Origin: Chthoniobacterales bacterium
GTDB lineage: Bacteria; Verrucomicrobiota; Verrucomicrobiia; Chthoniobacterales; UBA10450
Assembly: GCA_038230255.1 (NCBI GenBank)
Contig: JBBRNP010000002.1
Location: 306,134-370,133, forward strand
Length of the DNA: 64,000 bases
Reading direction: 5' to 3'
Under the pieces are notes generated by a model. It was not told the DNA's origin and did no database searches. It saw only the letters and a program-made list of their open reading frames with translations. A program made the position numbers and the translations under genes. This document shows positions 3,492 to 63,291 of this stretch, in pieces; the first letter of the stretch is position 1, and each line of letters opens with the position of its first letter.

Positions 3492-4235
3492 CTAAAGCTG
3501 CACTTGCTCGGCGCTATTCGTTGGCATCCAGCCGCGTAAATTATTCGGCAGCGCCACGTAAATCCAATCGCCGCGCTGGCTGACGATTTTGATTTCACTA
3601 CCGGCCGGCAGGGTCAAAACGCGATTGGCATTGTCAGCAGTTGCAAGTCGGGCTTCGACATTCTCTCCGGTTACAATCGCCAATCCACGGCCATTTTTGC
3701 CGTGACTGAGTTGATAAATCGCCAAAATGCCAATCGCGAAGATCGACAACGACAAGACCGACAATGCAATTGCAGCGCCACTGCGCCTTCTCCTAAAGAT
3801 AAATGCCGCGATCGAAAACAGACTGATCCAAAAAGCGATTGCGCCTGTGACGGCGTACTGATTTTCGTTGGCCAACGCCAATACCCGTTCCCATCTACCT
3901 GGAATCAATTCGAGTGCGCGCGCTTCGTCACGTGCGACTCGCAGATTCGCCTGGGCTTCGGGATGATGCGGCTCGAGCGCAAGCGCGCGCTCGTAATTGA
4001 GAACGGCATGGCCGAAATTATTTTTCCGGAAATAAGCATTACCCAAATTGTAAAAAACATTGGGAGTGTCCTCTCCGGAACGCACCAGCTCTTCATAGTC
4101 AGCAATTGCCGCTTTGAAATCGCCGGCGGCATATTCCTGATTGGCTTTGGCAAATTGTGCGGCGGGCTGCGCCATCAAAAATGGCGCGCTAAATAAACTG
4201 AGAGCAATGCAAGTGAGAGCTATTCGAGTTTTCAT
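3492..4235 (-). CDS. BatE-like TPR / TM / SH3 protein
   Basis: Signal peptide, TPR repeats (YFRKNNFGHAVLNYERALALEP), two TM helices and a C-terminal SH3b-like segment (GDWIYVALPNNLRGWMP). It is the last gene of the Bat operon and overlaps the batD stop by 4 nt. Confidence 0.7.
   Translation of the reverse strand: MKTRIALTCIALSLFSAPFLMAQPAAQFAKANQEYAAGDFKAAIADYEELVRSGEDTPNVFYNLGNAYFRKNNFGHAVLNYERALALEPHHPEAQANLRVARDEARALELIPGRWERVLALANENQYAVTGAIAFWISLFSIAAFIFRRRRSGAAIALSVLSLSIFAIGILAIYQLSHGKNGRGLAIVTGENVEARLATADNANRVLTLPAGSEIKIVSQRGDWIYVALPNNLRGWMPTNSAEQVQL
3739..3749 (-). repeat. Iterated word copy (GTTGTCGATCTT)
   Basis: Exact TTGTCGATCTT on the minus strand. Inside the batE-like gene, sense orientation, read as L-S-I-F. 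Confidence 0.9.
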
Positions 4236-6109
4236 GCGCGCAGACTTTCCAGCAATCTCAGGAGTTCTTCTCGTTCGTTGATCGAGATCTTACCGGCTCC
4301 GTTCCCACTTCCGCTGAACCGCAATTCGTCACTGCGCTCGAATAGTGTGCGGAGCTGTGCTTGCTCGTGTTCACCCAAATCAAAAGCTCGCGCTGCGGTA
4401 TCAGCGTCCACCGCGTTCGGGTTCATGTTTTTGGCGAGGGCCGTTTTTACGCGCACGACCTGCGACGCATTTGAAAAGTATTCCTGTGGCGATAACTCGC
4501 TTCGCCGCAACTTCCGCAGGAGCTTAGCAGATTCCTGCTGCAACTCTGCCATCCGCCGGGCGTCGCGATTGTCGATCTTCGCTTGCCGAATTGTCCAGCC
4601 GATGAATCCCAACAACAGAACGAACGGCGCTAATTGCGCGATCCAGAAAATCGGTCGCGCATAAATTGGGGTAAAGGATCGGACGCGCCCGAGATCCGTC
4701 ATCTGATACAAAATGTCCTGCGGCTTGGCTGTTGGCGCAGGCGTCACAGCCACCGTTGCTGTTGGGGTCGCAGCTGTTGCTCCGGCGGCTGGAGCTGTTG
4801 CAGCGCTTGCGGCCGGCGCGGCTCCGCCTTCGACCTGGATCGGGACCGGATTGCTCCGCAAGGTGACGTAATTCTCTTTCACTGGGTCGAAGTAGGCGAA
4901 AACCAGCGGCGGCACGGCCGGTTTCTTTTCGTTAGGCGCGATCACCATCTCGAAAGTTTTCTCGCCACTGATGCCGACGTCATCGTCCTGTTTAAATTTC
5001 GAGGAGGGCGGATACTTGTGCCAGCCCCGTTCGTCCTCGAGTACGGGCCCATTCATCCGATCAAAATTTCCTCGACCGGTGATCGTCGATGTCGCTGTGA
5101 TCGGATCGCCCACTTGCACAGTCTTCGGTTTTGCGTCCGCCGTCATGGTGAAATTGCCAATGGCGCCGGAAAAATTGGGCGGTGCATTCGGGGGAAGCGG
5201 CTTCACGTTGAGCGTGACCGGTTCGCTTCGAATCGGCAATTCGGTTCGCTCGCCCATGCTTCCAAACGGGTCGCTGAAGAACGGATCGGAGAACGGGTCA
5301 TCTAAATTAAACAGATCGAACGGCGATCGTGGACGCGTTGTTCGCGGGGCGCTCGGTCGTCGCGGCAGAACTACAGCGGCCTTGGCGGTGACCGGTCCGA
5401 CTTCAAATTTTCCAGGCCGCGCGGCCGCGATCGCGGTCTTGAACGTGTAAACTTGATAAGTTCTGCCGCCGATTGTTTCCAAGTTTTCGCGCGGTTGCTG
5501 CAGCTTTTGGGTGGTAAAACCCTGACCGGAAAGTTCGGGTCCCTCGTGGAGCCGGCCACGTGCGCGGCTATCGAATCCCAATCGAATTACGGCCGGTACC
5601 ATCTCGCCGACATAGGCATCCTTTTTTGCAACAACCAACTCCGCGAAAGCCAGCTTGCTCCCAACCGTGCTTTGTCCGCTTTGAGGCGCGCCGGCCGAGC
5701 TGCCGGACCTATTGGATCCCTGCGCTACATTCAACACCAGTTCGGGCGTGCGCAGCGAATCGTTTCCGACCCGGACCGTCTGAGGCGGAATTTTAAACTG
5801 CCCGGCCTTCAAGGGCAGAATTGTGTAATTGTAGGTTACGCTGCTGTTGACGTCGAAATTGTGCATCTCGAATTGCCGCGACGTTCCGGTCTGATGAATT
5901 TCCAGGCCGTCGACCGAGATCGTGTCAGGAGCATTCGCGCTATTTGCGCCGTTCACTTTGATCTCCAATTGCACCATCTGTCCGACCCCCGGCTGCGAGT
6001 CGCTTAACACGGCGGTAACGCTCGGAGCGGCCGCAAAACTGGATTGCATCGCCGCGACCGCGATTGGTGCCAAAAATAGAATTCGTCGGAACATCGACAT
6101 CTTCATCAA
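4232..6109 (-). CDS. BatD-like oxygen-tolerance protein
   Basis: Signal peptide, repeated beta-rich modules, a C-terminal TM helix and a helical tail. Its position between batB and batE fits batD. Confidence 0.7.
   Translation of the reverse strand: MMKMSMFRRILFLAPIAVAAMQSSFAAAPSVTAVLSDSQPGVGQMVQLEIKVNGANSANAPDTISVDGLEIHQTGTSRQFEMHNFDVNSSVTYNYTILPLKAGQFKIPPQTVRVGNDSLRTPELVLNVAQGSNRSGSSAGAPQSGQSTVGSKLAFAELVVAKKDAYVGEMVPAVIRLGFDSRARGRLHEGPELSGQGFTTQKLQQPRENLETIGGRTYQVYTFKTAIAAARPGKFEVGPVTAKAAVVLPRRPSAPRTTRPRSPFDLFNLDDPFSDPFFSDPFGSMGERTELPIRSEPVTLNVKPLPPNAPPNFSGAIGNFTMTADAKPKTVQVGDPITATSTITGRGNFDRMNGPVLEDERGWHKYPPSSKFKQDDDVGISGEKTFEMVIAPNEKKPAVPPLVFAYFDPVKENYVTLRSNPVPIQVEGGAAPAASAATAPAAGATAATPTATVAVTPAPTAKPQDILYQMTDLGRVRSFTPIYARPIFWIAQLAPFVLLLGFIGWTIRQAKIDNRDARRMAELQQESAKLLRKLRRSELSPQEYFSNASQVVRVKTALAKNMNPNAVDADTAARAFDLGEHEQAQLRTLFERSDELRFSGSGNGAGKISINEREELLRLLESLRA
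4568..4579 (+). repeat. Iterated word copy ATTGTCGATCTT
   Basis: Exact 12-mer. Inside batD, antisense; the coding strand reads K-I-D-N. Confidence 0.9.
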
Positions 6110-6134: not shown

Positions 6135-8411
6135 TCACCAGTCATTATAGACACGGCGTCGGACCTTGCGTTCATCAAGTTGAACTCGTTGTTCTTCGTC
6201 CTTCATCGACTTCAAGAGAAGCTCGGCCTGTTTCTCACTCATCTGTCCCTCTTTTTCCGCCTCCGCTTCGGCTAGTTGGGCAGCATTCTGCGGATTCTGC
6301 GGCGGTTGGTCGCCATTGGCTCCTTTGATTTCGCCGGCCAATTTTTTTTGCGGTGAAGACGTCGGCGTTGCTGACGGGGTCGCGTTTTCTCCCTCGTCTT
6401 CGCCTTCACCGGGAGAGGGCGATGGCATTTGTTCGTCGCCTTGACCCGGACTTGGCGACTCTTCCGGCTCTTCCTGGTCCCGTCCCGATTGTCGATCTTG
6501 TTTGCCAGCGGACGGACTCGGCGTGGCCTGCGTATTTTTGTTTTCCCCTTTTCCGGGTGAAGATGCGGGCGAAGGCGAAGATTGGTTCCCTGGCTGTTGG
6601 TCTTTGCCTTTTCCCGGTGATGGGGACGGAGTTTCACCTGCCTGAGGTTGCTGATTCTTTTGCGGCTCGTTTTTTGCCTGAGCCTGACTCGATTTGTCCT
6701 GCGAATTTTGATTCTGGCTGTTCCCGGACCGGTTTTGCGATTGTGCCTGCTGATTCTGCTGCTGTTGTTGTTGCTGGTCTTGCTTTTGATCCTTGCCGGA
6801 GCTGCTCTGCGATTGAGATTGTTGTTGCTGTTGATCTTGGTTTTGCTCGCCGCCGTTTTGTTGCTGGTTCTTGTCTTTTTTGTTTTGCTGTTGCGGGGGC
6901 GGCGTGGGTTTTTGTTTCGGATGCTGTTTCAACCGCTCGATCTTCTTTTTGACCTCTTCCAGATTCGCTTTGGCTGCTTCATTTTTCGGATTCAGCTGCA
7001 AAGTCGATTCGTAATGCGACGCCGCGTCGGTCAGGTCTTTGAGCGTGGTCTCGGTCGTTTGGTCCATGTCGGCGCGGTCTTCGAGAGTCCGGCCGAGATT
7101 GAAGTGGCTGTTCTCCTGAAGTCTCTTGTCGGGTGAGAGCAAGGCGTTACTGAACGATTGGAGCGCCTTGGTGTAATCGCCCATTTTGAAAGCGGCGGCG
7201 CCGGCATCGAATTCGATTTTCTCTGTTTGCGATGAATCCGGATGCGATTGCAGATCTTCCTGAAAGCTTTTGTAGGCGTCGTTGTATTTTCCTTCGCGAT
7301 AAAGGTTCAACCCGGTCGCAGTTGCAAACGCAGGCCTTGCGAAAATCAGAAGTAGCGCCGTAGCCGGGACTGCGATCTTTGACCATTGTGGCACCCGAGC
7401 GCGATCGCGGACTCGTTTGCGTTCGCCGATCAAGATCGACATCGTCAGCGCAAGCATGGCTGCGCCCAGCGCCCACTCATAGCGTTCAATCGGCCGCCGC
7501 CCCAACCGCGCATCGATTTCGGCAGCTTTCATGTTAGCCAATCCTTGCGAGTAAAGTTGGGACATCGTGCGCGGCCCGTCGTCGAGGTGAAGATAAAATC
7601 CGCCAGTAGCTTGAGCGATCTCGCGCAGCCGTTTTTCGTCGAGCTTCGATTTTACAACTTGTCCGGCGGAATCTTTTACGAACGCTGTTCCGCCGTCATC
7701 GCTGTTAAGCGGAATGAGCGAGCCTTGCGGTGTGCCGACTCCAATCGTGAAAATTCGCACGCCGGCATCGGCTGCGGTTTTCGCCATTTTCGCGGCGTCG
7801 CCACTCAACTCTTCGCCGTCCGTGAAAATGATCAGCGCGCGATTCCCCGCGGCACTTTTTCCAAAGGTGTTCAGAGCGAGGGTAATCGCTTCTGAGATAT
7901 TTGTCCCGCCTTCGGGAATCGTCTTCGTATCCAGATCGTTAATCGATTCGACCGCTGCTTCGTAATCAATCGTCAACGGCGCCTGCAAAAATGCGCGTCC
8001 CGCAAAGGCGATCAACCCAACGCGATCGCCTTGGAGCTGGTTAACGAGATCTTGGGCCGCGAGTTTGACGCGTTCGAGCCGATTCGGCTGCACATCGTTT
8101 GAAAGCATGCTGCGCGAAGTGTCCACCGCGAAAAGGAGGTCGAGTCCTTTGCGTTTAACGTCTTCATAAATGTAGCCCCATTGCGGGCGAGCAAGACTGA
8201 CGATCGCGAACGCAAGTCCGAGCATTAGCAACGCAAATCGGAAAACCCGCCTCCCGCGATTTACAGTCGCGGCGAGTTGCGGAAGCAATCGCGTCGAAAC
8301 GAATTCGCGAAGTCTCGCAATTCCTCGCTGTTCCGCGCGCGCAAACAACAATGCGAGGACTGGAATTACAACCAGTGCCCAAAACCAGATTGGTGCGCCA
8401 AAGCTGATCAT
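6135..8411 (-). CDS. BatB/BatC-type VWA plus TPR protein with a long Q/S/P-rich tail
   Basis: VWA MIDAS motif (LLFAVDTSRSM), TM helices, TPR repeats, then about 240 aa of low complexity. I chose the start at ATG 8411 (MISFGAPIWFW...), which forms an ATGA overlap with the batA stop. The ORF track extends to 8483. Confidence 0.8.
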   Translation of the reverse strand: MISFGAPIWFWALVVIPVLALLFARAEQRGIARLREFVSTRLLPQLAATVNRGRRVFRFALLMLGLAFAIVSLARPQWGYIYEDVKRKGLDLLFAVDTSRSMLSNDVQPNRLERVKLAAQDLVNQLQGDRVGLIAFAGRAFLQAPLTIDYEAAVESINDLDTKTIPEGGTNISEAITLALNTFGKSAAGNRALIIFTDGEELSGDAAKMAKTAADAGVRIFTIGVGTPQGSLIPLNSDDGGTAFVKDSAGQVVKSKLDEKRLREIAQATGGFYLHLDDGPRTMSQLYSQGLANMKAAEIDARLGRRPIERYEWALGAAMLALTMSILIGERKRVRDRARVPQWSKIAVPATALLLIFARPAFATATGLNLYREGKYNDAYKSFQEDLQSHPDSSQTEKIEFDAGAAAFKMGDYTKALQSFSNALLSPDKRLQENSHFNLGRTLEDRADMDQTTETTLKDLTDAASHYESTLQLNPKNEAAKANLEEVKKKIERLKQHPKQKPTPPPQQQNKKDKNQQQNGGEQNQDQQQQQSQSQSSSGKDQKQDQQQQQQQNQQAQSQNRSGNSQNQNSQDKSSQAQAKNEPQKNQQPQAGETPSPSPGKGKDQQPGNQSSPSPASSPGKGENKNTQATPSPSAGKQDRQSGRDQEEPEESPSPGQGDEQMPSPSPGEGEDEGENATPSATPTSSPQKKLAGEIKGANGDQPPQNPQNAAQLAEAEAEKEGQMSEKQAELLLKSMKDEEQRVQLDERKVRRRVYNDW
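6488..6499 (+). repeat. Iterated word copy ATTGTCGATCTT
   Basis: Exact 12-mer. Inside the batB tail, antisense; the coding strand reads Q-D-R-Q. Confidence 0.9.
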
Positions 8412-9959: not shown

Positions 9960-10859
9960 TCATCGGGTGGCGACGCGGCGTTCGCGTTGCTTAAAAAACG
10001 AACGCAGCGCCGGCAAATAGTCTTTGCTCGTGCGCAACGTGATCGCGTCAATGTTGTTTCGGCGAAGCGTGCGCGTGAGCTGATTTGCTTTTTCATCCGC
10101 CAAATCGCTGAATCGCGCACGCGTGCCCCGATCAGCGGTGTTGAGTTCAATCTGTTCGCCAGTCTCAGCGTCTTCGAGGGTAATGATTCCGACATTTGGC
10201 AGCACCTGCTCGCGCTCGTCCTGGATGTGAAGCGCAATCAGATCATGCCGGCGACCGCTAACTGCGAGCGGGTGCGAGAAATCGGGCGCTTGAAAATCGG
10301 AAATGAAAAACACAACGGCCCGCCGCGTTACGATCTTGTTTAGGTAATCGAGCGCCAGGGCAACATCAGTCCCGCGACCGACGGGCTCGAAAAACAAAAC
10401 CTCGCGGATAAGTCGAAGCGTGTGCGAGCGGCCTTTCTTCGGCGGAATAAAAAGCTCCACTCGATCGGTAAAAAGGATCAGCCCGACCTTGTCGTTATTC
10501 CGGATCGCGCTGAAGGCGAGGAGACACGCTACTTCCGCCGCCAGTTCACGTTTCGATTGCATCGTGCTTCCAAAATTTCCCGACGCGCTAACATCGACAA
10601 TCAACATCACCGTCAGTTCGCGTTCTTCGGTGAATTTCTTTACGAAAGCGGTTCCGAGTCGCGCGGTCACGTTCCAATCGATCGCGCGAATTTCGTCGCC
10701 CGGTTGGTATTCGCGCACGTCTTCAAAGTTCATCCCGCGACCTTTGAAGACGCTGTGGTAATCGCCGGCGAAAACCGTCTCGACCAGGCCCTTGGTTTTA
10801 ATTTCGAGCGTGCGGATCTTCTTGAGAATCTCCGCAGTTCTTTCCTGCAAACCGTTCAT
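9960..10859 (-). CDS. DUF58 family protein (MoxR partner)
   Basis: Characteristic GDYHSVFKGRGMNFEDVREYQPGDEIRAIDWNVTAR motif. Immediately downstream of moxR. Confidence 0.85.
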   Translation of the reverse strand: MNGLQERTAEILKKIRTLEIKTKGLVETVFAGDYHSVFKGRGMNFEDVREYQPGDEIRAIDWNVTARLGTAFVKKFTEERELTVMLIVDVSASGNFGSTMQSKRELAAEVACLLAFSAIRNNDKVGLILFTDRVELFIPPKKGRSHTLRLIREVLFFEPVGRGTDVALALDYLNKIVTRRAVVFFISDFQAPDFSHPLAVSGRRHDLIALHIQDEREQVLPNVGIITLEDAETGEQIELNTADRGTRARFSDLADEKANQLTRTLRRNNIDAITLRTSKDYLPALRSFFKQRERRVATR

Positions 10860-10867: not shown

Positions 10868-11854
10868 TCAGGGAACCGGAAGGCCGGCAAAAATCCTTTC
10901 GATGATCGTTTCGCTCGTGACGGCTTCAGCTTCGGCCTCGTAACTGACAATGATGCGGTGCCGCAAGACGTCCGCTCCGATGCTCTTCACATCTTGCGGA
11001 GTGACGTAACCACGCCCGTTCAAGAACGCGTGGGCGCGCGCGCCGAGCGCGAGATAAATCGTGGCCCGCGGCGATGCGCCGTAACGAATCAATCCTTCGA
11101 GATGCAAATTGTAGGAAGCCGGCTCACGCGTGGCCCAGACAACATCGACAATGTAATCTTTAACGCGGTCGTCGATGTAGATTTGGTTCACCACGTCGCG
11201 CGCGGCGATGACTTGTTTCGGGTCGACGACTGCATTGACGCGCAAATCGGGCGTCGATGTCGCCATTAAATCCAGAATCGTGCGCTCCTCGGATTTTGCC
11301 GGGTAACCGATATTCAATTTGAACATGAATCGATCGAGCTGCGCCTCAGGCAATTGATAGGTTCCTTCCTGCTCGATCGGATTTTGCGTAGCCAAAACGA
11401 GGAATGGATCGGAGAGGGGGTAGGTTTGTTCGCCGATTGTGACCTGGCGTTCCTGCATCGCCTCAAGCAGCGCGCTCTGCACTTTCGCCGGCGCACGGTT
11501 GATTTCGTCGGCCAGAATTAGATTCGAAAAAATTGGGCCGAGTTTGGTCGTGAATTCGCCGGTGCGTGGGTTGTAAATCAATGTGCCGATCAAATCCGCC
11601 GGCAAAAGATCGGGCGTGAATTGTAATCGTTGGAAACCGGTCTGGATCGCCGCCGCCATCGTCTTGACGGTGAGCGTCTTGGCCAAACCCGGCACGCCCT
11701 CGAGCAAAATGTGGCCGTTGGCGAGCAGGCCGAGCAGCAAGCGGTCGACCAGATATTTTTGGCCGACAACGACATGCGACACCTGCTCGCGCAAGAGCGG
11801 GATCCAGAGGCCCAGCTCCTGCACGTCACGGGTGATTTCCTGCGTCGATTTCAT
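10868..11854 (-). CDS. moxR: MoxR-family AAA+ ATPase
   Basis: Walker A-like LLEGVPGLAKT, Walker B LADEINRA and a conserved MoxR C-terminus. I chose the start at the internal M (MKSTQEI...). The ORF extends to 11914. Confidence 0.9.
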   Translation of the reverse strand: MKSTQEITRDVQELGLWIPLLREQVSHVVVGQKYLVDRLLLGLLANGHILLEGVPGLAKTLTVKTMAAAIQTGFQRLQFTPDLLPADLIGTLIYNPRTGEFTTKLGPIFSNLILADEINRAPAKVQSALLEAMQERQVTIGEQTYPLSDPFLVLATQNPIEQEGTYQLPEAQLDRFMFKLNIGYPAKSEERTILDLMATSTPDLRVNAVVDPKQVIAARDVVNQIYIDDRVKDYIVDVVWATREPASYNLHLEGLIRYGASPRATIYLALGARAHAFLNGRGYVTPQDVKSIGADVLRHRIIVSYEAEAEAVTSETIIERIFAGLPVP

Positions 11855-11931: not shown

Positions 11932-13344
11932 TTATTTGCGGCGCGTCTCCGTCCGCGGGCGCAGCGTCAAAATAATCGGCAGGCCCGTATAAGGTTCGGC
12001 ATCGCGGATGCGCGCTTCGAGGTAGCGCGAGTAGGATTGCGAGAGCAATCCCGGATCGTTGACAAACAACACGATCTCCGGCCCTTGAAGGCGCCGATCT
12101 TTCGTTCCCGCCGCTTGCGCGGCATAAAACAACTTCAATCGTCGGCCTTTGACCATGGGCGGTGGATTTGCGGCGAGTGCCGCGCGCATTAACCGATTCA
12201 AAACGCCAGTTCCAATGCGCTTGGCCGATGCGCGCTCAATTTTGCCAATCATTTCGAAAAGCCGCTCGACGTTCTCGCCTGTCCGCGCGGATGCAATTAG
12301 CACCGGTGTGTAGTTGAGAAAGAAAATTCTTTCGCGCGCGTCGTCGGCGAGTTCGCGGATCGTCTGCCGTTCGCCGCGTTTTGGTTTAACCAGGTCCCAT
12401 TTGTTCAGAACAACCAACGCCGCTTTGCGCGCCTCTTGAATCAATCCGGCGATTCGCTTGTCCTGCGCGGTCACGCCGCTGGTAAGATCGACAATCAAAA
12501 TGCAGAGATCGGCCCGACGAATACTTCGCTCAGCTCGCATGACACTGAAGACCTCGACTGAGCTGGAGTGTTTGCCGCGCCTCCGCATTCCAGCCGTGTC
12601 GATGAACAAGAACCGGCGGCCTTCGCGCTCTAAAGAAATGTCGACTGAATCACGCGTTGTTCCCGGCAATTCGCTCACGATCGCGCGCTCGCTCTGTACG
12701 ATCGCATTGATCAGCGAAGATTTGCCGACGTTCGGCCGCCCGATGATGGCGATCTTGTTGTAGCCCAGAGCCTCCATCTCGGTTTTGTCTGCATCCGCGT
12801 CTGCGCTGTCGCGGTCATCGATCGCTGATACAGCGTCTGGGAGCAGTTGATCGATTTCGCCTAACAAATCCGAAATGCCGCGATTATGCTCGGCGCTGAT
12901 CGAAACGATTTTATCAAAGCCTAGCGAATCGAATTCCGCCGCTAGCGAATCGTGCTTGTCGTGATCGATCTTGTTGACCACGAGAACGATCGGCTTTCGC
13001 GATCTTCGTAGCGTGCGTGCGACATCTTGGTCGATGGGCGATAGCCCATGTTTTCCATCGACCATAAACAAGAGAAGATCGCTTGCGCGTAGCGCGTCGT
13101 CCGCTGTCCGCCGAACTTGGGCGACGAGATCCTTTTCGCCGGCGCCAAAAATACCGCCCGTGTCCCAAAGCGTGAACGGGTGTTCTCCGCGGTTGCAGAT
13201 TGCCGAAATCCGGTCGCGGGTGATGCCGGGCTGATCGTGAACAATCGCGATCTTGCGACGAAGGAGTCGATTGAAGAGAGCTGACTTGCCGACATTCGGA
13301 CGTCCGATGATTGCGACGCTCGGCAGTTTTGCCTTTTCGTTCAT
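11932..13344 (-). CDS. der: Ribosome-associated GTPase Der/EngA (double GTPase domain)
   Basis: Two G domains (GRPNVGKSALFN, and GRPNVGKSSLIN with DTAGMRR) plus a KH-like C-terminus. Confidence 0.95.
   Translation of the reverse strand: MNEKAKLPSVAIIGRPNVGKSALFNRLLRRKIAIVHDQPGITRDRISAICNRGEHPFTLWDTGGIFGAGEKDLVAQVRRTADDALRASDLLLFMVDGKHGLSPIDQDVARTLRRSRKPIVLVVNKIDHDKHDSLAAEFDSLGFDKIVSISAEHNRGISDLLGEIDQLLPDAVSAIDDRDSADADADKTEMEALGYNKIAIIGRPNVGKSSLINAIVQSERAIVSELPGTTRDSVDISLEREGRRFLFIDTAGMRRRGKHSSSVEVFSVMRAERSIRRADLCILIVDLTSGVTAQDKRIAGLIQEARKAALVVLNKWDLVKPKRGERQTIRELADDARERIFFLNYTPVLIASARTGENVERLFEMIGKIERASAKRIGTGVLNRLMRAALAANPPPMVKGRRLKLFYAAQAAGTKDRRLQGPEIVLFVNDPGLLSQSYSRYLEARIRDAEPYTGLPIILTLRPRTETRRK
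12484..12495 (-). repeat. Iterated word copy ATTGTCGATCTT
   Basis: Exact 12-mer on the minus strand. Inside der, sense, read as I-V-D-L. Confidence 0.9.
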
Positions 13345-20628: not shown

Positions 20629-20640
20629 ATTGTCGATCTT
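20629..20640 (+). repeat. Iterated word copy ATTGTCGATCTT (intergenic)
   Basis: Exact 12-mer between the mscS start (20587) and the debranching-enzyme stop (20691). Confidence 0.9.
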
Positions 20641-28382: not shown

Positions 28383-28383
28383 G

Positions 28384-32120: not shown

Positions 32121-32132
32121 ATTGTCGATCTT
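32121..32132 (+). repeat. Iterated word copy ATTGTCGATCTT (intergenic)
   Basis: Exact 12-mer in the 56-nt gap between the divergent EVE gene and tmk. Confidence 0.9.
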
Positions 32133-43468: not shown

Positions 43469-43480
43469 ATTGTCGATCTT
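43469..43480 (+). repeat. Iterated word copy ATTGTCGATCTT (5' region)
   Basis: Exact 12-mer in the divergent region between the metB-like gene (start 43437) and gdhA (43563). Confidence 0.9.
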
Positions 43481-49979: not shown

Positions 49980-49993
49980 TTTTTCGCATTGAA

Positions 49994-52179: not shown

Positions 52180-53016
52180 GTGACCAAGTCGTCGCCTGCT
52201 AAGGCCAGTGTGGAATGTCCGCACTGTGGCTTTAAGCAAATGGAATATGTGGCGGCGAAGACGACTATTTGCCGGCAGTGCGGTCGTTCCTTTTCTCCCT
52301 CGGCGCCCAAGCCGGGCCTGAAACTTAAAGACGAGTCCGCTGCGCCGGAGGAATTGCCACTTCATCGAAAGCTCGAGGGGATCTGGAGCCGGCAACGCAA
52401 CCGCCTCATTTCCTGTTTCGAATGCAAACGCAAACACGAGGTCAGCGATCAGGCGACATCGACCAATTGTCCCGGCTGCAGCGCGCACATCGATCTCCGC
52501 GATTACAAGATTACCACCAGCTTTAGCCGAACGATTCGGACTCGCGGTGACGTCCATCTCTTGAGCAAGGGCGATCTGAGCAGCACGAGCGTGATTTGTA
52601 ATTCGGCGATTATTGAAGGGAAACTCCGCGGCAATCTCGAGTGCGAGGATGCGATGACGATTAACCTGGTCGGAAAAATTCCCGGCCGCATTGGCGCTCA
52701 ACACATGACGGTCGAACGAAAATCCGACATCCAATGTTTTCGGCGCGTGCGGGTGACGAACATCGACATCAAGGGACGGATGTCGGGTGAAATCATTGCC
52801 ACCGGCTCGGTCACAATTCACAAAACCGGCACGCTGGACGGGAACGTGACCGCGAAATCAATCGCGATCGAGAAAGGCGGAATGTTTACGGGGCAATTGG
52901 CGATCGGTCAGGCCAACCTTACTCAAGGCGAGTTGCTACCGGAGGCGAAGGCAGCCGAAAAGAAGGCCGAGTCAGAGGTGCCCCTGGGCGCAACTCAGCC
53001 CTTGCACGCCACCTAG
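52180..53016 (+). CDS. Bactofilin with two N-terminal zinc-ribbon motifs
   Basis: CPHCG..17..CRQCG and CFECK..15..CPGCS, followed by a bactofilin domain (IIEGKLRGNLECEDAMTINLVGKIPGRI...VTIHKTGTLDGNVTAKSIAIEKGGMFTGQL). Confidence 0.75.
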   Translation: MTKSSPAKASVECPHCGFKQMEYVAAKTTICRQCGRSFSPSAPKPGLKLKDESAAPEELPLHRKLEGIWSRQRNRLISCFECKRKHEVSDQATSTNCPGCSAHIDLRDYKITTSFSRTIRTRGDVHLLSKGDLSSTSVICNSAIIEGKLRGNLECEDAMTINLVGKIPGRIGAQHMTVERKSDIQCFRRVRVTNIDIKGRMSGEIIATGSVTIHKTGTLDGNVTAKSIAIEKGGMFTGQLAIGQANLTQGELLPEAKAAEKKAESEVPLGATQPLHAT

Positions 53017-54321: not shown

Positions 54322-57072
54322 TTATGTTACAGCTCCGCCCGAAATAGAAGCACGCAGACGTCGCTGGATCGCGGCGATCCGGTGTGAGTCGGTAATCTTG
54401 GTCCGACTCTCGCGGTCGGTGACGTAAAATGTATCGATCGCGGCGCCTTTCTGGGTGCTGATACGCGAGAGAACGATATTTGTTCCTTCCTGCCCCAGCC
54501 CGGTCAACAAATCGTAAAGGAGGCCAACCCGATCTGGCGCCTCAATCTGGACCAAGGTGTAGGCGGGATGCGCCTTGTTATCGATTGCGATCCCGGCCGG
54601 GAATTCCAGTTCCTGCAGTCGTCCAGGTTTAATCTTGTGACGCGCTTGCTCGAGCAAGGGCGCAAACTCAAAAGTCTCCACTTCGAGCGCAGTCCGCAGC
54701 GTGTTTTCGACCAGATCGCGGTCGCGCGCCTCGGTGACGGCACGTCCTTTCGCATCGGACACGCGAAAAATGGCAAGAACCGTATGGTCGCCACGCGGGA
54801 AAATATCGGCGCTTAAAATATTGAGCGGCACAACCGAAAACGATCCGGCGATTTTCGCGAGGAAGTGATGCCGGTCCCAGGTGCAAAAACAGACGATGCT
54901 GTGTCCCAATTCGGGAAAAGCTTCCCAGCTTACCGCGGGTGCAAGCGGGCGCTCCTCTTCGATCGATCCGTTCTCGAAAAACGATCGAAACAGTTGTAGA
55001 TCGTGCACGATGTCGGGGACTTTCGATGCGCGAAAATAATTGTCCGGCATGAATTCGAAGTGCGCTTCGATTTCTTCCGCGAAATCGGGCGGCAGCTCAG
55101 TCGCCACCGCCGCTTCCAGGGACTCGCGCTCAATCTTGGTTTGTTCGTGATAAGATTTTTGGTCGGCGAGATATTGCGAGGTGGCGTGAAAGAGTTGCCA
55201 AACAAGCGACTCCTTCCAATCCGACCAGCCTTGTCCGCTCGTCCCCTGGCCGTCGGCCAGTGTCAGTAACATCAGCGCGTGCAGATGTTTTTGGCTCCGG
55301 ACAACGTTCGCAAACTCCGCGATCGTGGCCGGATCATCGAGGTTTCGTTGTTGCGCGGTGTTGGAGAGGGTGACGTGGTGATCGACCAGAAGAATAAGCG
55401 ATTTCCGTTGCTCCGGCGAAAGCTGGAGGCGCTTGGACACGCTTTGCGCGAAAAGAGCGCTCGCCTCTGAATGCGGACGGGCACCGACTGCCCGGCCGGT
55501 GTCATGCAAAAGTAAAGCAAGGTAAAGAACAAAAGGATCTTCGAGATTTTCGAAAAGATGACGATAAGCGATCAACTTCGAATCGTTTGTTCGAATCAAC
55601 GCGTCGAGCTTGTCGATGCAAAGAAGGGTGTGCTCGTCCGCGGTGTAACGGTGAAAGAATTCATGCTGCACCAAACAGGTTAGCTGGCCAAACTCCGGAA
55701 TATAACGGCCGAGATAATCCACCCGGTGCATGAGACGGAGTGTGCGTCCCACCTCGCCTTTCTTAGACAACATGTCTTTGAACATTTCGCGCGGCGCTTT
55801 GGCATACCGATAAGTGCGGGTCACCTGTCCGAGCGCGCGGCTGATCAAGTCCTCCATCTCGGGGCTAAGATCGACATTCTTTTCCTGCGCGCATTCAAAC
55901 GCTCGCATCATCTCCAACGGCTCCTTCTTGAAAATGTCCCGCTGATCGGTATGAAGCTGGTCCTGGCGAATCGAGAACGATCCCAGTTTTGTTTCGATGC
56001 CGCGCCGGAGCGGTAAAAACGCGAAGAGCGCGCGGGTCCCGCTGGTCGTATAACCGCTGGCAAATTGCTCGGTGATGCGTTCGGTCACACGAAAAATATT
56101 TCGGGTGTGTTTGTAATAATCGCGCATCAGCGCCTCGCTCGCTCGCTGGCCATTCTTTTCCCGGTACTGCAAGCGGCGCGCGATTTCTTCCTGCAGATTG
56201 AGGTGAAGGACGTCAGCCGCGCGCTTGGAGAAATAATGCAAATCGGTGCGGAGCCGCAGAAGGAAATCGTATGCTATTTCGATTCGGCGCTGGTCCGATT
56301 CGCTCAACCAATCCCGGCCGACCAGATGCGTTGTGGTCAGGGCACCTTCTTTGAAATACGACATCCAAAGTAAATTCTGATAATCACGCAGACCGCCGCA
56401 GCCGTTCTTAAGATTTGGCTCCTGCATGTAAACGCTGTCGCCAAACTTGCGGTGACGCGCTTCCTGATCGCGCATCCGCAGCTCGGCATATTCGCGCTCG
56501 GAGCCAGCCACGCATTTTGCGCGAAATTGATCACGAAATTCCTCGGCGAGCTCGCGATCTCCGGTCAGGAAACGCGATTCGAGCATCGCCGTTTTAGTCA
56601 GCATGTCGCGATTCGCCTGCGCCAGCGCCTCTTTCATCGAGCGCGTCGAATGCCCTACTTTGAAACCGATGTCCCAAAGTAAATATAGAATCTGCTCGGC
56701 CATCCCTTTCACATATGGAGAGACTTTGCCGGCGCCGTGTAAAAGCATCACGTCGACATCGCTAAACGGATTGAGTTCGCCCCGGCCGTATCCGCCCAAC
56801 GCGATCAACGCCAAAGAAGTCTTCGGCTGGCCGACGGCGGTGGTGGCCGCGGTAAAAACGTGACGCAAAATTACGTCCACCAGTTCACCGCGCCGCGCGC
56901 AGATTTCGCGACCGCCACCGCCGGCCTGATGTTTCAAACGAAGCCGATGCTCCTCGAGTTTGAGAAATTTTTTATAGGTCGAAAGGACTTCGGTTGGCCG
57001 CTGCTGACCGGCGACGGCAAGCTGGTCTTCAGCATGCGCCAGGACTTTCTCGAGATGTCGCGAGGTCGCCAT
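54322..57072 (-). CDS. glnD: [Protein-PII] uridylyltransferase / uridylyl-removing enzyme GlnD
   Basis: NTase motif GGYGRGELNPFSDVDVMLLH, HD domain (LLLHDTGRA) and two C-terminal ACT domains. 916 aa. Confidence 0.9.
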   Translation of the reverse strand: MATSRHLEKVLAHAEDQLAVAGQQRPTEVLSTYKKFLKLEEHRLRLKHQAGGGGREICARRGELVDVILRHVFTAATTAVGQPKTSLALIALGGYGRGELNPFSDVDVMLLHGAGKVSPYVKGMAEQILYLLWDIGFKVGHSTRSMKEALAQANRDMLTKTAMLESRFLTGDRELAEEFRDQFRAKCVAGSEREYAELRMRDQEARHRKFGDSVYMQEPNLKNGCGGLRDYQNLLWMSYFKEGALTTTHLVGRDWLSESDQRRIEIAYDFLLRLRTDLHYFSKRAADVLHLNLQEEIARRLQYREKNGQRASEALMRDYYKHTRNIFRVTERITEQFASGYTTSGTRALFAFLPLRRGIETKLGSFSIRQDQLHTDQRDIFKKEPLEMMRAFECAQEKNVDLSPEMEDLISRALGQVTRTYRYAKAPREMFKDMLSKKGEVGRTLRLMHRVDYLGRYIPEFGQLTCLVQHEFFHRYTADEHTLLCIDKLDALIRTNDSKLIAYRHLFENLEDPFVLYLALLLHDTGRAVGARPHSEASALFAQSVSKRLQLSPEQRKSLILLVDHHVTLSNTAQQRNLDDPATIAEFANVVRSQKHLHALMLLTLADGQGTSGQGWSDWKESLVWQLFHATSQYLADQKSYHEQTKIERESLEAAVATELPPDFAEEIEAHFEFMPDNYFRASKVPDIVHDLQLFRSFFENGSIEEERPLAPAVSWEAFPELGHSIVCFCTWDRHHFLAKIAGSFSVVPLNILSADIFPRGDHTVLAIFRVSDAKGRAVTEARDRDLVENTLRTALEVETFEFAPLLEQARHKIKPGRLQELEFPAGIAIDNKAHPAYTLVQIEAPDRVGLLYDLLTGLGQEGTNIVLSRISTQKGAAIDTFYVTDRESRTKITDSHRIAAIQRRLRASISGGAVT

Positions 57073-58565: not shown

Positions 58566-59276
58566 TCATCTTTCCGCCGGGAAAGATGGCAGCGTAAAAG
58601 TCGTGACGAGGGTCGATGTTTTTTGATCGTACTCAGCTCGGAAATCGCCACCATGCGCTTCCGCAATCGAACGCACGCGATTCAGACCGAGCCCATAGTG
58701 GCCCTGGCTCACGTTTCGCAACGGTTCGCGACCCCAATTGTCGGTTGATAATTCGAAGCGCGCTTTCGGTTCCTCCAACTCGAAGACCAAACGATTATTG
58801 TCGATCTTAATCTTCGCCGCGATCGATTTAATATTGCGCTCGTGATAAAACGCGTTGCTGAAAATTTCGAGGAAAGCTTGTTGAACCAACTGCGGATCGA
58901 CTTGCAGCACCTCATCTTTCAATTGCACGTCCCAGGTCACCTTGGCTGCGTTATCCGGGAATTCCTTCGCCAGCTTTTGTTTCAAGTCCTCGACGAAATC
59001 CGCCGCCGGGTAGGGAATCAGATTGGGATTGGTCTGGCTGAGGCCGGAGGTCAAGCGCTGCAGACTGATTCCGATTTGCGAAATCATTTCGCGCAATCGC
59101 TGAACCTCTTTCTTCATTTCCGCGTCTTCGGCCAACTCCGCCAGGAAAGCAGATTGCAGCTCCACCGCGTTCAAGTTGTTTCGAATGTCGTGGCTCAGTT
59201 GCCGGACAAATTTGACCATGTCGGGCCATGGCACGCCGGGCGAGTGGTTTTCTGGTTGCTCAGAGGATTTCGACAT
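58566..59276 (-). CDS. Short cytoplasmic histidine kinase (NtrB-like, no sensor domain)
   Basis: H-box LSHDIRNNLN and a C-terminal ATPase G-box (GLGLNRVRSIAEAHGG). 236 aa. Confidence 0.7.
   Translation of the reverse strand: MSKSSEQPENHSPGVPWPDMVKFVRQLSHDIRNNLNAVELQSAFLAELAEDAEMKKEVQRLREMISQIGISLQRLTSGLSQTNPNLIPYPAADFVEDLKQKLAKEFPDNAAKVTWDVQLKDEVLQVDPQLVQQAFLEIFSNAFYHERNIKSIAAKIKIDNNRLVFELEEPKARFELSTDNWGREPLRNVSQGHYGLGLNRVRSIAEAHGGDFRAEYDQKTSTLVTTFTLPSFPAER
58797..58808 (+). repeat. Iterated word copy ATTGTCGATCTT
   Basis: Exact 12-mer. Inside the short histidine kinase gene, antisense; the coding strand reads K-I-D-N. Confidence 0.9.
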
Positions 59277-59300: not shown

Positions 59301-60878
59301 CTATTCCTTGAGGGAAAATTGGTCGTCCGACGGTCCTTCACTTTTCGCAATCTGCACATGCGAATCGTTGCTCGCAAGATGTTGCAACACGTGAAAAACG
59401 TCTTCCGGGTCGGCGTCGATCGCCCGCGCAATTTCCTCGGAAGTCTTACCGGTTCCCGGCGAAAGTTTTTTGCGAACGTCATCTTGCAACTGAAGCAATC
59501 GTGTGGCCGCTTTCTTTCCGGCTTCCACACCCGGTTGATGATAGGCGTTGATGTTGACCAGCGAACCGTAGAAGCCGACCGCGCGTTCGTAGAGCGCGAT
59601 CAAAGCACCGATGTTAAATGCATTCGCGTCGGCAATGCTGACCGTGATCGATTCGCGCTCCTTTTCGTAAAGCGCCGTCCGCGTTCCGCGCAGAAATCCG
59701 TGCAGATAATCTCCGCTGGTAACGCCGCTCTCCACTTCGAAAGCCGCACGATTACGATCCTTCGCAACTTCAATGAACGTCAGGAAGAAATTTAAAACGC
59801 CGTCGCGCAATTGCTGCACGTAGGCGTGTTGATCGGTCGATCCCTTGTTCCCGTAAACGGCGATGCCTTGATTCACAATTTTACCGTCGAGATCCTTCTC
59901 TTTGCCTAACGATTCCATCACCAGCTGCTGAAGATAACGGCTGAAGAGCAGCAGCCGGTCTTTATACGGCAGCACCACCATGTCTTTTTCGCCGCGACCG
60001 TTGCCGGCGTAAAACCACATCAAAGCGAGCAGCATCGCGGCGTTTTGCCGAAAATCGTTGGCTCGCGTTCGTTCGTCCATCGCCGCCGCGCCGGCCAGGA
60101 AATTGTCGATGTCGAAACCTTCCAATGCCATCGGCACGAGTCCGACCGCGCTCATCACCGACGTGCGCCCACCAACCCAATCCCACATTGGAAAGCGCGC
60201 AATCCAACCACTTTTCTCCGCGTGCTTGTCCAGATCGCTGCCGACGCCGGTAATGGCGACCGCGTGTTTGGCAAAATCCAGGCCGGCGGCTTTGAATCGA
60301 GCTTCCGCTTCCAACATTCCGTTGCGCGTTTCTTTCGTTCCGCCCGACTTCGAAATCACGACGACGATCGTGCGTGCGAGTTTGTTGTCGATCTTGTCGA
60401 GGACGCGATCGAATCCGTCCGGGTCGGTGTTATCGAAAAAGTAAATGTCGAATGGATCCTTCGCGGTCCCGAGCGCTTCGGCGATGAATTGGGGCCCGAG
60501 CGCCGAACCACCAATCCCAATCGAGAGGACGTGTTGAAAGTTTTCGCCCGAACCGCCTTTGATTCTCCCTTTGTGGACATCAGCCGCGAATTCCTTTATC
60601 CGCGCGTACGTCTTCTCGATCTCGGCGCGTAACTCCGCATTTGGCGCGAGCGCGGGTTTGCGCAGCCAATAATGGCCAACCATTCGTTTTTCATCCGGGT
60701 TCCCAATGCCGCCTGCTTCCAGGTCGCGCATCGCGGCAAACGCCTTCTCGATCTTGGATCCCATTTTGTCGAAGAAGTCGTCTGGAAACTTCATCCGGCT
60801 GATGTCGATCGAAAAACCGAGATCGTCGTAGCGCAATAAATATTGCTGGAAGCGCTGCCAAAGCGACGAAGAAGCCAT
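59301..60878 (-). CDS. pgi: Glucose-6-phosphate isomerase
   Basis: [21 protein letters not shown] and [12 protein letters not shown] motifs. Confidence 0.95.
60385..60395 (+). repeat. Iterated word copy (GTTGTCGATCTT)
   Basis: Exact TTGTCGATCTT. Inside pgi, antisense; the coding strand reads K-I-D-N. Confidence 0.9.
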
Positions 60879-60979: not shown

Positions 60980-63291
60980 CCCAATGGCGGCTTCGTTGTG
61001 CCGCTTTCCTTCTTGATTGGTACTTCATCCTTGGGGGCGACATCATATTCCGGTTTCGGGGTGCCGAGCAGCCAGTGGTCGAACCAGCCGACAATATTTT
61101 GCAAACGCTCGACCCGATGCCACGGCTTGCCCGAGCGTGAGAGTTCGTGCGATTCGTCAGGAAACCGCACCATCACCGTCGGGATTTTCCGAAACTTGAG
61201 CGCCCGGAACATTTCCTCGCCACCGGCACTGGGCGGTGTGCGATAATCGGCTTCTCCCAAAATGAACATCATCGGTGTCTTCACATCTTTGATGTAAGTG
61301 ATCGGCGAACGCGCTTTGAAGTCCTCTTCCTGATCGAAGGGTGGTCCTTTGAACCAAGCCGGCTGGAACAGGGTGAAGTCCGCCGTGTACCACCAATGCA
61401 CCCAGCTCGCGATGTCGCGCTGCGAAACCGCGGCCGCGAAGCGAGTCGTATGTCCGACGACCCAGTTCGTAAGTAATCCGCCGCCGCTGCCGCCGGTAAC
61501 GCCGAGCTTTTTCTCATCGATATAGCCGCGCTTGATCACTTCATCCACGCCCGCCATCAAATCTTTGAAATCGTCGCCCGGATAATGGTACTGGATCACG
61601 TTCCCGAACTCCTGGCCGTAGGTAGTGCTGCCGCGCGGATTGGGAAAGAGCACCACATAACCCTTCGCCGCCATCCATTGAAATTCGTGCTCGAAAATGT
61701 AGCCGTAGGCCGCGTGTGGTCCGCCATGAATGTTGAGAATGAGCGGATATTTTTTTGCGGCGTTGAAGTCGGGCGGCTTTTGCATCCAGGCTTGAATCGT
61801 TTTACCGTCGAAACTTTTGTAGGAAATTTCTTCCGGCTCGGTCAGATTGAGTTTGGAGAAAAGTTCCTTGTTAACATCGGTCAACTGTCGTGGCTGCGCG
61901 TTCGGTGACTGTCGATCTAACACAAACAAATCCCCGACCCGCGTTCCGGTGGAGACCGCGTAAATAATCTTTGAGCCGTCGTTAGACGCGCGAAACCGGG
62001 AGACTGCCTGATTGCCGTTGACCAGATCGCTGACGGTGCCGCTTGTCGCATCGAACGATGCCAAAATTGATTTGCCTTCTTTGCCATAGCTTTCCACCAA
62101 ACTGCGGCCATCCGGTGTCCAGATCGGAATGCTTCGACCGCCGGCGCGGGGCGGGGCATTGTCGCCGAACGGTCCATCGCCGATGTCGAAATCGAATTTC
62201 TCAGTCAAATTTCGCGGCTTGGCGTTCGGTGTAAGATCGACAATCCACAGGTCTGGTTGCGTATAGGAGTTCACCGGCTGCGTGACCGAGGTGACGAACG
62301 CAAACTGTTTTCCGTCTGGACTCAGCGAGAGCGGGCCGACGTCCATGTCGATCGTAGTGATCTTGGTTGCGTTGCCGCCATTCGCGCTGATCGAATAAAG
62401 TTCGCTCTTTGCCTGTTCGTAATATGGTTCGTCGATGTGAAGCGAAACAAAGTAGATCTGCGCGCCGTCCTTCGACCAAACAACGTTGCCTTCATCAAAA
62501 CGCCCGGACGTCAGTTGCTTCGGCTGCACTTTTTCATCCGCGTTGCGTGGCGCCTGGACCGCCCAGATGTGCGCCGGATGCTTGGGATCGGTGTAGCCTT
62601 CGTTGTCTTCCCGGTAGACCGCGCGCGTGATCACGCGCACATCGCTCTCGTGCTCTGATTCAGCTTCCGCTTTCTTGACGGCTTGCTCAGCCGCAGTTTT
62701 CGACGCTGCGTCTTTTTCACCTGGAGTTTTCGACGCTGCGGGCGAAACGCCTGGTGAAATCTCGCTGACTGCTTTCTTCAATTCGTCTTCTTTCTTCTTT
62801 TTCTTTTCCTGTTTGGCGATGTCTTCCGCATTTGTTTCGCTCGTAAACGCAATTGTCTTTCCGTCGGGTGACCAAACTGGATTGCTCGCGCCTTTTGGTA
62901 AATCGGTAAAGGAAAATGAATCCCCTCCGGTCATCGGTAAGATCGACAATTGCGGCGGCTCGGGTTTGCCGTCTTTCTCGGTCGCCCGAACGAACACCAA
63001 ATATTTTCCATCCGGCGACCAGCGCGGCATGGAATCGTGATCGCCCTTCGTAAGCTGATGCGGTTCTTCGCCCCCAGCGGTCGGCACCGACCAGATGGAA
63101 GTGTTATAGCCCTCTTTTTTCTCGTTCACCGTCACGCGCACAAACGCGACGCGCGACCCGTCCGGAGAAATCTGCGGATCGCCGATCCAGACAAAATCCC
63201 AAAGATCTTTTTCCGTGATGTTTCGTTTTTGCGCGAAAAGATTCCCACCGACCGCAAGGACGACAAAGAGGAAAGTAATCAATCTATTCAT
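60961..63291 (-). CDS. S9 family serine peptidase (beta-propeller plus alpha/beta hydrolase)
   Basis: Signal peptide, WD-like propeller blades (SPDG repeats) and catalytic GGSGGG. There is an internal K/E/A-rich insert. Confidence 0.9.
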   Translation of the reverse strand: MNRLITFLFVVLAVGGNLFAQKRNITEKDLWDFVWIGDPQISPDGSRVAFVRVTVNEKKEGYNTSIWSVPTAGGEEPHQLTKGDHDSMPRWSPDGKYLVFVRATEKDGKPEPPQLSILPMTGGDSFSFTDLPKGASNPVWSPDGKTIAFTSETNAEDIAKQEKKKKKEDELKKAVSEISPGVSPAASKTPGEKDAASKTAAEQAVKKAEAESEHESDVRVITRAVYREDNEGYTDPKHPAHIWAVQAPRNADEKVQPKQLTSGRFDEGNVVWSKDGAQIYFVSLHIDEPYYEQAKSELYSISANGGNATKITTIDMDVGPLSLSPDGKQFAFVTSVTQPVNSYTQPDLWIVDLTPNAKPRNLTEKFDFDIGDGPFGDNAPPRAGGRSIPIWTPDGRSLVESYGKEGKSILASFDATSGTVSDLVNGNQAVSRFRASNDGSKIIYAVSTGTRVGDLFVLDRQSPNAQPRQLTDVNKELFSKLNLTEPEEISYKSFDGKTIQAWMQKPPDFNAAKKYPLILNIHGGPHAAYGYIFEHEFQWMAAKGYVVLFPNPRGSTTYGQEFGNVIQYHYPGDDFKDLMAGVDEVIKRGYIDEKKLGVTGGSGGGLLTNWVVGHTTRFAAAVSQRDIASWVHWWYTADFTLFQPAWFKGPPFDQEEDFKARSPITYIKDVKTPMMFILGEADYRTPPSAGGEEMFRALKFRKIPTVMVRFPDESHELSRSGKPWHRVERLQNIVGWFDHWLLGTPKPEYDVAPKDEVPIKKESGTTKPPLGVTSDM
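62233..62244 (-). repeat. Iterated word copy ATTGTCGATCTT
   Basis: Exact 12-mer on the minus strand. Inside the S9 peptidase gene, sense, read as I-V-D-L. Confidence 0.9.
62939..62950 (-). repeat. Iterated word copy ATTGTCGATCTT
   Basis: Exact 12-mer on the minus strand. Inside the S9 peptidase gene, sense but in another frame, read as L-S-I-L. Confidence 0.9.

Follow-up and report, generated by a model that had tools for sequence, protein, structure and literature searches.

Genes and a repeated word in the window

The window analysed in this study is a single 64-kb contig stretch of an uncultured Chthoniobacterales bacterium, and all coordinates refer to this whole stretch. Its genes include pilM, a BatA-D/MoxR cluster, der, recR, genes for glycogen enzymes, tmk, holB, pgl, murJ, gdh, glnD, an NtrC-type regulator gene, pgi, and an S9 peptidase gene, and no methyltransferase, restriction enzyme or mobile element is encoded in it. 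The window is ordinary chromosome, and one DNA word, named W1 here, is found across all of it. In an unbiased k-mer census, it was found that the commonest 10-mer is AAGATCGACA, the reverse strand of TGTCGATCTT, with 30 copies or about 0.47 per kb (approximately one per 2 kb). W1 is defined as the 10-mer TGTCGATCTT, with the consensus R-W-T-GTCGATCTT. As described below, W1 is a selected, hyper-abundant, lineage-specific DNA word with a putative function, and its sequence, its phylum, and a distribution unlike those of the known uptake sequences are new.

Longer and shorter forms of the word are over-represented too. The 11-mer TTGTCGATCTT occurs 15 times, while dinucleotide shuffles of the window gave 0.09 copies on average and one at most. 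The 12-mer AAGATCGACAAT (equivalent to ATTGTCGATCTT) occurs 13 times, AAGATCGACAT (equivalent to ATGTCGATCTT) 14 times, and the 9-mer core TGTCGATCT 35 times against 0.50 expected. A sister form, ATTGTCGATGT, is present in six copies (559, 2826, and 60102 on the plus strand; 10591, 11142, and 35953 on the minus strand). The first-pass annotation of this DNA had listed the 15 copies of the 11-mer (13 of them as the 12-mer), at least 35 copies of the core against about 0.5 expected, and the six sister copies, and all of these counts and coordinates were reproduced. When all of the 39 GTCGATCT sites are aligned, only 12 positions carry information, R-W-T-G-T-C-G-A-T-C-T-T, and the 5′ end occurs in two linked versions, (R)ATT (n = 13) and GAT (n = 12). 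The flanks beyond these positions look random. Thus, the copies are not fragments of a longer repeat, and a longer mobile repeat, which the annotation had also rejected, is ruled out.

The 30 possible single-substitution variants of the 10-mer have only 28 copies in total. The sole clearly enriched variant is the C8-to-G form TGTCGATGTT (8 copies against 0.34 expected), which loses the GATC that W1 embeds together with TCGA. GATC itself is in excess in the coding sequence (477 against 360 ± 13 in synonymous shuffles), and so is TCGATC (138 against 68 ± 7), both beyond what W1 explains. TCGATC is about as frequent in relatives that lack the word, and there is no sign of GATC avoidance in the window.

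W1 is uniform along genes. Its orientation is mixed, with 15 copies on each strand and frequent alternation along the 64 kb, and the ratio of sense to antisense copies relative to genes is 18:11. The spacing is slightly more even than random (coefficient of variation 0.73 against 0.96; 5.8% of randomisations are as even). Non-coding DNA makes up 8.2% of the window and contains 1 of the 30 exact copies and 2 of the 58 copies with at most one mismatch, while 8 of 112 copies pooled over relatives are intergenic against 8.1 expected. Thus, there is no intergenic excess. Three intergenic copies had been annotated before, and this number depends on the choice of start codons: the gene ends (5′) at the copies 20631 and 43471 are uncertain, which leaves one.

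Pressure on the DNA word

Is the abundance of W1 a consequence of the encoded peptides and codons? An order-3 Markov model predicts 0.40 copies, so that the 30 copies observed are an approximately 75-fold excess. Synonymous codons were also shuffled within each of 52 genes, with the protein sequences and the per-gene codon usage kept. In 1000 shuffles, 2.04 ± 1.34 copies were obtained (8 at most), while 29 are observed in the coding sequence. Thus, the excess within the window survives both kinds of null model.

In the sense direction, 13 of the 30 copies read as xVDL and 5 as xSI(L/F); in the antisense direction, 6 read as KID, 4 as DRQ/H, and 1 as RST; the remaining copy is intergenic. The use of several strand and frame readings had been noted before, and four of the six frames (S1, S2, A0, and A1) are indeed in use. 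The other two, S0 and A2, are avoided or rare; they would need TGT-CGA-TCT or AGA-TCG-ACA, which contain rare codons or residues (Cys/CGA/TCT, AGA). As many as 15 of the 20 VDL tripeptides are spelled GTCGATCTT, while codon usage predicts about 3% for GTC-GAT-CTT, and CTT accounts for only 16% of the Leu codons outside W1. Likewise, 7 of the 8 KID tripeptides are spelled AAGATCGAC and 4 of the 7 DRQ tripeptides GATCGACAA, and VDL, KID, and DRQ are all 2.3-2.9-fold more frequent than predicted from amino-acid frequencies. These results indicate that the pressure is on the DNA, and that under it the choice of codons and the sequences of the proteins have both changed. What is selected or driven is the DNA word and not a peptide, as the first-pass annotation had argued, and the conservation of third codon positions described below agrees with the shuffles in this respect.

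Distribution and conservation among relatives

Homologues of Der place the window among uncultured Chthoniobacterales of the Verrucomicrobiota, adjoining metagenome-assembled genomes (MAGs) of Candidatus Udaeobacter. The der neighbourhoods compared here cover up to about 21 kb per locus, several contigs being shorter. W1 is present at 0.33-0.70 per kb in the der loci L002-L008, L010, L012, L016, L018, L023, L038, and L053. It is scarce or missing in the loci L009, L011, L013, and L050 and in those of the Udaeobacter group (L014, L015, L019-L022, L024, and L031), and it is absent from the der loci of more distant Chthoniobacterales, Chthoniobacter, Methylacidiphilales, and Firmicutes, including many with a GC content of 54-56%. 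Thus, W1 is dense in related loci and absent from unrelated loci of the same GC content. In a neighbour-joining tree of Der sequences, the word-bearing taxa form one clade with W1-poor lineages nested inside it, which indicates an old gain followed by losses.

The pgi neighbourhoods were taken from soil metagenomes as an independent locus. Contigs with a Pgi identity of at least 76% mostly have 0.12-0.83 copies of W1 per kb, and some have none; one pgi contig, L210, has 16 copies in 19 kb. At a Pgi identity of 72% or lower, a single copy was found in several hundred kilobases. Thus, the pgi locus reproduces the distribution seen at the der locus. As a viral control, 120 IMG/VR loci (974 kb), each chosen for one copy of a 15-mer, were found to hold 5 further copies of W1, which equals the background; these are unrelated viruses and are not informative on phages of the Chthoniobacterales clade.

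Word-bearing relatives have the same W1 at orthologous positions. At these positions, the word-less relatives encode the peptide with different codons (IVDL as ATCGTGGACCTA or GTGATCGACCTG) or have another peptide (KAGD, RASN, or HLNN for KIDN), and there are no insertions or deletions at the compared sites. Thus, the copies of W1 arose through point substitutions, part of which were non-synonymous. Perfect conservation in word-bearing relatives was found for 31 of 46 aligned W1 sites, compared with 6-31% for random 10-mers from the same genes. The identity of third codon positions within W1 is 0.82-1.00 in word-bearing relatives against a background of 0.50-0.73, and the same positions in L009, L011, L013, and L031 show 0.35-0.41 against 0.45-0.50; these comparisons are not phylogenetically independent, while the word-less lineages serve as an internal negative control and the contrast is large. 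W1 is therefore maintained at the DNA level as well as generated by substitution. These results establish that a sequence-specific, orientation-independent force creates and preserves W1 chromosome-wide in one clade and vanishes in some of its descendants.

Traces of the word are left in the Udaeobacter group. The half-word ATTGTCGAT occurs 22 times in L014, L015, L019-L022, L031, and L047, against 3.0 expected (about 7-fold), and the 3′ ends of these half-words differ by one substitution from CTT (CTC, TTT, and CTG). They look like eroded relics of a lost word. In another locus, L017 (CAWJXB010000006.1), the sister word ATTGTCGATGTT occurs six times and W1 three times in a sample of only 21 kb, and this preference may tentatively be regarded as a dialect of W1.

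A second word

After W1 was masked, the only remaining outlier in the window was W2, TCGTTAGGC (reverse complement GCCTAACGA), with 7 copies against 0.18 expected. The copies are inside genes on both strands, with unrelated flanks. W2 has a wider phylogenetic range than W1. It is strongest in L009, L011, L013, and L050 (TCGTTAGG, 21 copies against 1.1 expected), while a variant, TCGTTAGC, dominates in the more distant L032-L036, L046, L051, L052, and L054 (29 against 2.9 expected); no W2 was found in the Chthoniobacter and Methylacidiphilales loci. The former four der loci suggested that W2 replaces a lost W1. This was not borne out at pgi, where W2 occurs at about 0.15-0.18 per kb (summed by hand) with or without W1. 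W2 may be the mark of an older specificity. The sites of both words are listed in Table 1.

Table 1. Sites of W1 (exact copies of TGTCGATCTT, with the 5′ form given after the comma), its 9-mer core TGTCGATCT, its sister variant, and W2 in the window
Position	Strand	Word	Gene or region	Orientation	Reading
3739..3748	-	W1, GTT	TPR/SH3 gene	sense	SLSIF
4570..4579	+	W1, ATT	BatD gene	antisense	KIDN
6490..6499	+	W1, ATT	BatA/VWA/TPR gene	antisense	QDRQ
7432..7441	-	W1, GAT	same BatA/VWA/TPR gene	sense	MSIL
12484..12493	-	W1, ATT	der (GTPase); oldest site, common to the whole word-bearing clade	sense	IVDL
14465..14474	-	W1, GAT	DJ-1/PfpI gene	sense	DVDL
16095..16104	-	W1, ACT	AAA+ (Clp-type) gene	antisense	KIDS
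20631..20640	+	W1, ATT	5′ end of MscS-like gene, or intergenic by start codon	antisense	
24609..24618	-	W1, GAT	alpha-amylase-family gene	sense	DVDL
24915..24924	+	W1, GAT	DPBB_1 gene	antisense	KIDI
26918..26927	-	W1, GAT	CHASE4 sensor gene	sense	MSIF
27888..27897	-	W1, GAT	PG_binding gene	sense	DVDL
30874..30883	-	W1, ATT	DUF2334 gene	sense	IVDL
31388..31397	+	W1, ATT	DUF2334 gene	antisense	KDRQ
32123..32132	+	W1, ATT	intergenic, upstream of tmk		
32565..32574	+	W1, GAT	thymidylate kinase gene	sense	DVDL
34047..34056	-	W1, GAT	short-chain dehydrogenase gene	antisense	KIDI
36568..36577	+	W1, ATT	6-phosphogluconolactonase gene	sense	IVDL
36865..36874	+	W1, GAT	6-phosphogluconolactonase gene	sense	DVDL
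37914..37923	+	W1, CAT	NIF3/DUF34 gene	sense	HVDL
42970..42979	-	W1, ATT	Cys/Met PLP (pyridoxal phosphate) enzyme gene	sense	IVDL
43471..43480	+	W1, ATT	extreme 5′ end of Cys/Met PLP enzyme gene, or upstream	antisense	
45244..45253	+	W1, GAT	unknown gene 44873-45793	sense	DVDL
47047..47056	+	W1, GAT	start of gene 47046-47630	sense	MSIL
50631..50640	-	W1, GAT	unknown gene 49994-51544	antisense	KDRH
55867..55876	-	W1, AAT	GlnD gene	sense	NVDL
58799..58808	+	W1, ATT	HATPase_c gene	antisense	KIDN
60386..60395	+	W1, GTT	pgi	antisense	KIDN
62233..62242	-	W1, ATT	S9 peptidase gene	sense	IVDL
62939..62948	-	W1, ATT	S9 peptidase gene	sense	LSIL
35157..35165	-	9-mer core, last T replaced (TGTCGATCTA)			
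35851..35859	+	9-mer core (TGTCGATCTC)			
42279..42287	+	9-mer core (TGTCGATCTC)			
47620..47628	+	9-mer core (TGTCGATCTA)	overlaps W2-like TCGTTAG on the opposite strand		
61910..61918	+	9-mer core (TGTCGATCTA)			
2828..2837	+	sister variant TGTCGATGTT (C8 to G, without GATC)			
6090..6099	-	sister variant TGTCGATGTT			
10590..10599	-	sister variant TGTCGATGTT			
11141..11150	-	sister variant TGTCGATGTT			
21150..21159	-	sister variant TGTCGATGTT			
42551..42560	-	sister variant TGTCGATGTT			
51051..51060	+	sister variant TGTCGATGTT			
52759..52768	-	sister variant TGTCGATGTT			
908, 4929, 18701, 19151, 20688, 46426, 51096, 59906		W2 (TCGTTAGG)			

W1 as a possible self-tag for DNA uptake

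The uptake signal sequence (USS) of Pasteurellaceae (AAGTGCGGT in Haemophilus influenzae and an Apl-type variant) belongs to a different phylum and has a different sequence. Like W1, it is an asymmetric word of 9-12 bp that is found in either orientation with a comparable density, with many genic copies in a few tolerated frames, an origin by point mutation, and lineage-specific variant types (PMC2817400, PMC1939737). The DNA uptake sequence (DUS) of Neisseriaceae (AT-GCCGTCTGAA and its dialects) resembles W1 in having a core of 10-12 nucleotides with a weaker 5′ extension, single-base dialects between lineages, conservation in the core genome, and a similar order of copy number (PMC3630211, PMC2397512). 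If the density of 0.47 per kb is extrapolated to a genome assumed to be about 3-5 Mb, there would be approximately 1,400-2,300 copies of W1, compared with 1,471 of USS and 1,892 of DUS, and the tripeptides encoded by USS and DUS are approximately doubled, which is the same effect as that of W1 (PMC2817400). The uptake bias of USS has been shown experimentally (PMC3458573, PMC7811141), while for W1 it is a prediction. Among the well-studied words without polarity, DUS and USS are proven to be tied to transformation, and HIP1 of cyanobacteria, the highly iterated palindrome, is now suspected of it (bioRxiv 10.1101/2024.09.10.611283; 10.64898/2026.06.24.733823).

Since W1 shares its density, strand symmetry, origin by point mutation, conservation, frame filtering, tripeptide increase, and dialect-like variation with USS and DUS, I tentatively favour the explanation that it is a self-tag that enhances uptake or transformation and is spread by molecular drive, to which I would give nearly an even chance. 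A component of the uptake or transformation machinery would bind double-stranded DNA bearing W1 in either orientation; in the case of DUS, the receptor is the minor pilin ComP (PMC3868556). Fragments with W1 would then be imported and recombined into conspecific chromosomes more often than others. Mutations creating or perfecting the word would spread and those destroying it would be lost by molecular drive, possibly together with selection for self-preference, while protein-coding constraint would filter the reading frames that can host it. The bias in uptake or recombination, the receptor, and the competence of these bacteria are what I infer from the analogy. That W1, and perhaps the older W2 too, is a genuine specificity sequence for uptake or transformation in abundant uncultured soil Verrucomicrobiota, the relatives of Candidatus Udaeobacter, is a real possibility, although I lean somewhat against it.

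Several observations weigh against an uptake tag. The clearest mismatch is the lack of an excess outside genes, since 35-65% of the known DUS and USS copies lie outside open reading frames (ORFs) and about half are in terminators. USS is enriched 2-3-fold in non-coding DNA (35% outside ORFs) and has AT-rich flanking segments, and W1 has neither feature. About two thirds of DUS copies are outside ORFs, often as inverted pairs in terminators; the window was searched for such an arrangement of W1 and none was found, all opposite-strand pairs being at least about 110 nt apart. The only secure competence-related gene in the window is pilM. The first-pass annotation had read pilMNO at the left edge, and of this reading pilM stands with a solid Pfam match, while the putative pilN has only a weak one (E = 0.034). 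No secretin, ComEA, ComEC, DprA, or minor pilin was found in the 64-kb window or in L202. There is also no report of natural transformation in Verrucomicrobiota in the literature searched, and the clade is known only from matches to MAGs, with no cultured member. A second enriched word in the same genome is not predicted by uptake through a single receptor, and the co-existence of W1 and W2 complicates such a model. Finally, conservation by drive is indistinguishable on the present data from ordinary selection for an intracellular function.

Other explanations

Such an intracellular function is the core of the main rival explanation, in which W1 is a genome signal resembling HIP1 (GCGATCGC), that is, a set of dispersed sites at which an abundant cytoplasmic protein binds to or modifies the DNA. 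For example, the protein may organise the nucleoid or chromosome, be linked to a methyltransferase or to repair, or serve as a cofactor in recombination, and ordinary selection would keep the coverage of the chromosome roughly even. I regard this as rather unlikely, if worth serious attention. HIP1 is hyper-abundant (15-300-fold), enriched and conserved in and outside genes in several frames (W1 in only four of six), maintained rather than merely replenished, and contains GATC (PMC5861425). The equal density of W1 in coding and non-coding DNA, its uniform positions along genes, its rather even spacing, and the embedded GATC and TCGA would all suit a signal of this type, and a second word is easier to accept if there are several DNA-binding factors. 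However, HIP1 is a palindromic octamer read by orphan methyltransferases, while W1 is asymmetric and 10-12 bp in length, and its sister variant without GATC is itself enriched and even dominant in one lineage. To my knowledge, no nucleoid or chromosome-organising protein has an asymmetric site of 10-12 bp that occurs about once per 2 kb with no orientation bias. Raw counts of CGATCGCG-like 8-mers hinted at an enrichment of HIP1-type palindromes, which was ruled out by the order-3 Markov model (GCGATCGC, 12 against 9.8; CGATCG, 84 against 94.5). Thus, the comparison with HIP1 made in the first-pass annotation holds for the behaviour of the word and not for the HIP1 word itself. A periodicity of 10-90 kb has been reported for HIP1, and the W1 window is only 64 kb. 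It has been reported that HIP1 increases transformation in a way that depends on methylation, and HIP1 has been proposed as an uptake sequence (bioRxiv 10.1101/2024.09.10.611283; 10.64898/2026.06.24.733823), so that this rival may collapse into the uptake explanation.

It is improbable that W1 is a by-product, without function, of a sequence-specific bias in repair or gene conversion. For example, a mismatch endonuclease or nickase resembling that of very-short-patch repair would correct near-matches toward W1, and the word would decay where the enzyme is lost. This would account for the point substitutions in near-matches, the restriction to one clade, the clean erosion after apparent loss, and the equal density in coding and non-coding DNA. 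However, known repair biases act on contexts of 4-5 bp and cause a few-fold excess at most, while the excess of W1 is about 75-fold for a 10-mer, and the bias would need to override codon preference and to change amino acids.

A polar signal such as Chi (RecBCD/AddAB) or the FtsK-orienting polar sequences and architecture-imparting sequences (KOPS/AIMS) is close to refuted. These are also short, asymmetric, over-represented chromosomal words read by a DNA-processing machine, and recR and DNA-replication genes are present in the window. However, they are strongly co-oriented with replication and modestly enriched, and W1 is non-polar, as had been annotated, with alternating orientations in the window and no consistent strand skew seen in relatives; it is also longer and far more enriched than the Chi or KOPS octamers. 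Lastly, that most copies lie within genes and most often read as xVDL would suit an artefact of protein motifs, of codon or codon-pair usage, or of dispersed remnants of mobile repeats, but this can be dismissed: synonymous shuffling and the third positions, kept only in word-bearing lineages, rule out the peptide and codon versions, and the word is read in four frames and from either strand, includes a minor Leu codon, has dissimilar flanks, and is present in many independent MAGs and metagenomes.

Novelty and implications

Full-text searches of the literature gave no description of W1, no uptake sequence from Verrucomicrobia, and no relevant work on Udaeobacter competence; the first-pass annotation was not aware of a description either. 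Only for two families of Proteobacteria are sequence-specific self-DNA tags well established, and HIP1 of cyanobacteria may be a third case. If W1 is such a tag, it would be the first system of this kind outside Proteobacteria, the HIP1 hypothesis apart: a new and unrelated tag in Verrucomicrobiota, with maintenance at the DNA level, reshaping of the proteome, dialects, and decay after loss. In that case, natural transformation with a preference for self-DNA would be frequent in a dominant soil clade, the phylogeny of that clade would show how the specificity was gained, changed in dialect, and lost, and gene exchange would become open to testing in a soil lineage that is among the most abundant and the least tractable. 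Since the related lineages include some that have the word, some with eroded copies, and some that lack it, their comparison is a natural experiment by which the reader protein of W1 may be found. Whatever the function, a word of 10-12 bp that reshapes the codon and tripeptide usage of a clade calls for explanation. In practice, W1 may also help to bin these MAGs, as a marker of the lineage, and to recognise foreign DNA in them.

Neighbouring genes and other repeated words

At the left edge (1-3446) and in L202, three small ORFs (222, 189, and 165 aa), none with a confident Pfam match, come after pilM, and no secretin adjoins the pilM cluster in an exact-protein look-up and in L202. A 470-aa protein of unknown family is encoded upstream of pilM. 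Another run, from 47046 to 51544, contains three genes without Pfam matches (47046-47630, 47640-48110, and 49994-51544) and a gene for a weak TonB_C protein (48532-49299). Since W1 and its variants still occur there, this segment is not obviously foreign.

Other repeated words were found in a few of the compared loci. In a Methylacidiphilales-like MAG (L057, OY969777.1), the 9-mer ACGGAATTA has 18 copies in 21 kb, and there are related 9-10-mers too. Locally repeated 10-mers are CACCGACACC in L030 (9 copies), AAGAGGAAGA in L040 (11 copies), and AAAAAGGCTC and CGTCGTTCTA in L048, all of which may be tandem or coding repeats. In the L014-L031 and L025-L030 groups, GTTATAGACA and CATGTCTATA(A) are present in 5-7 different loci with roughly one copy in each, a pattern that would fit a single conserved orthologous element.

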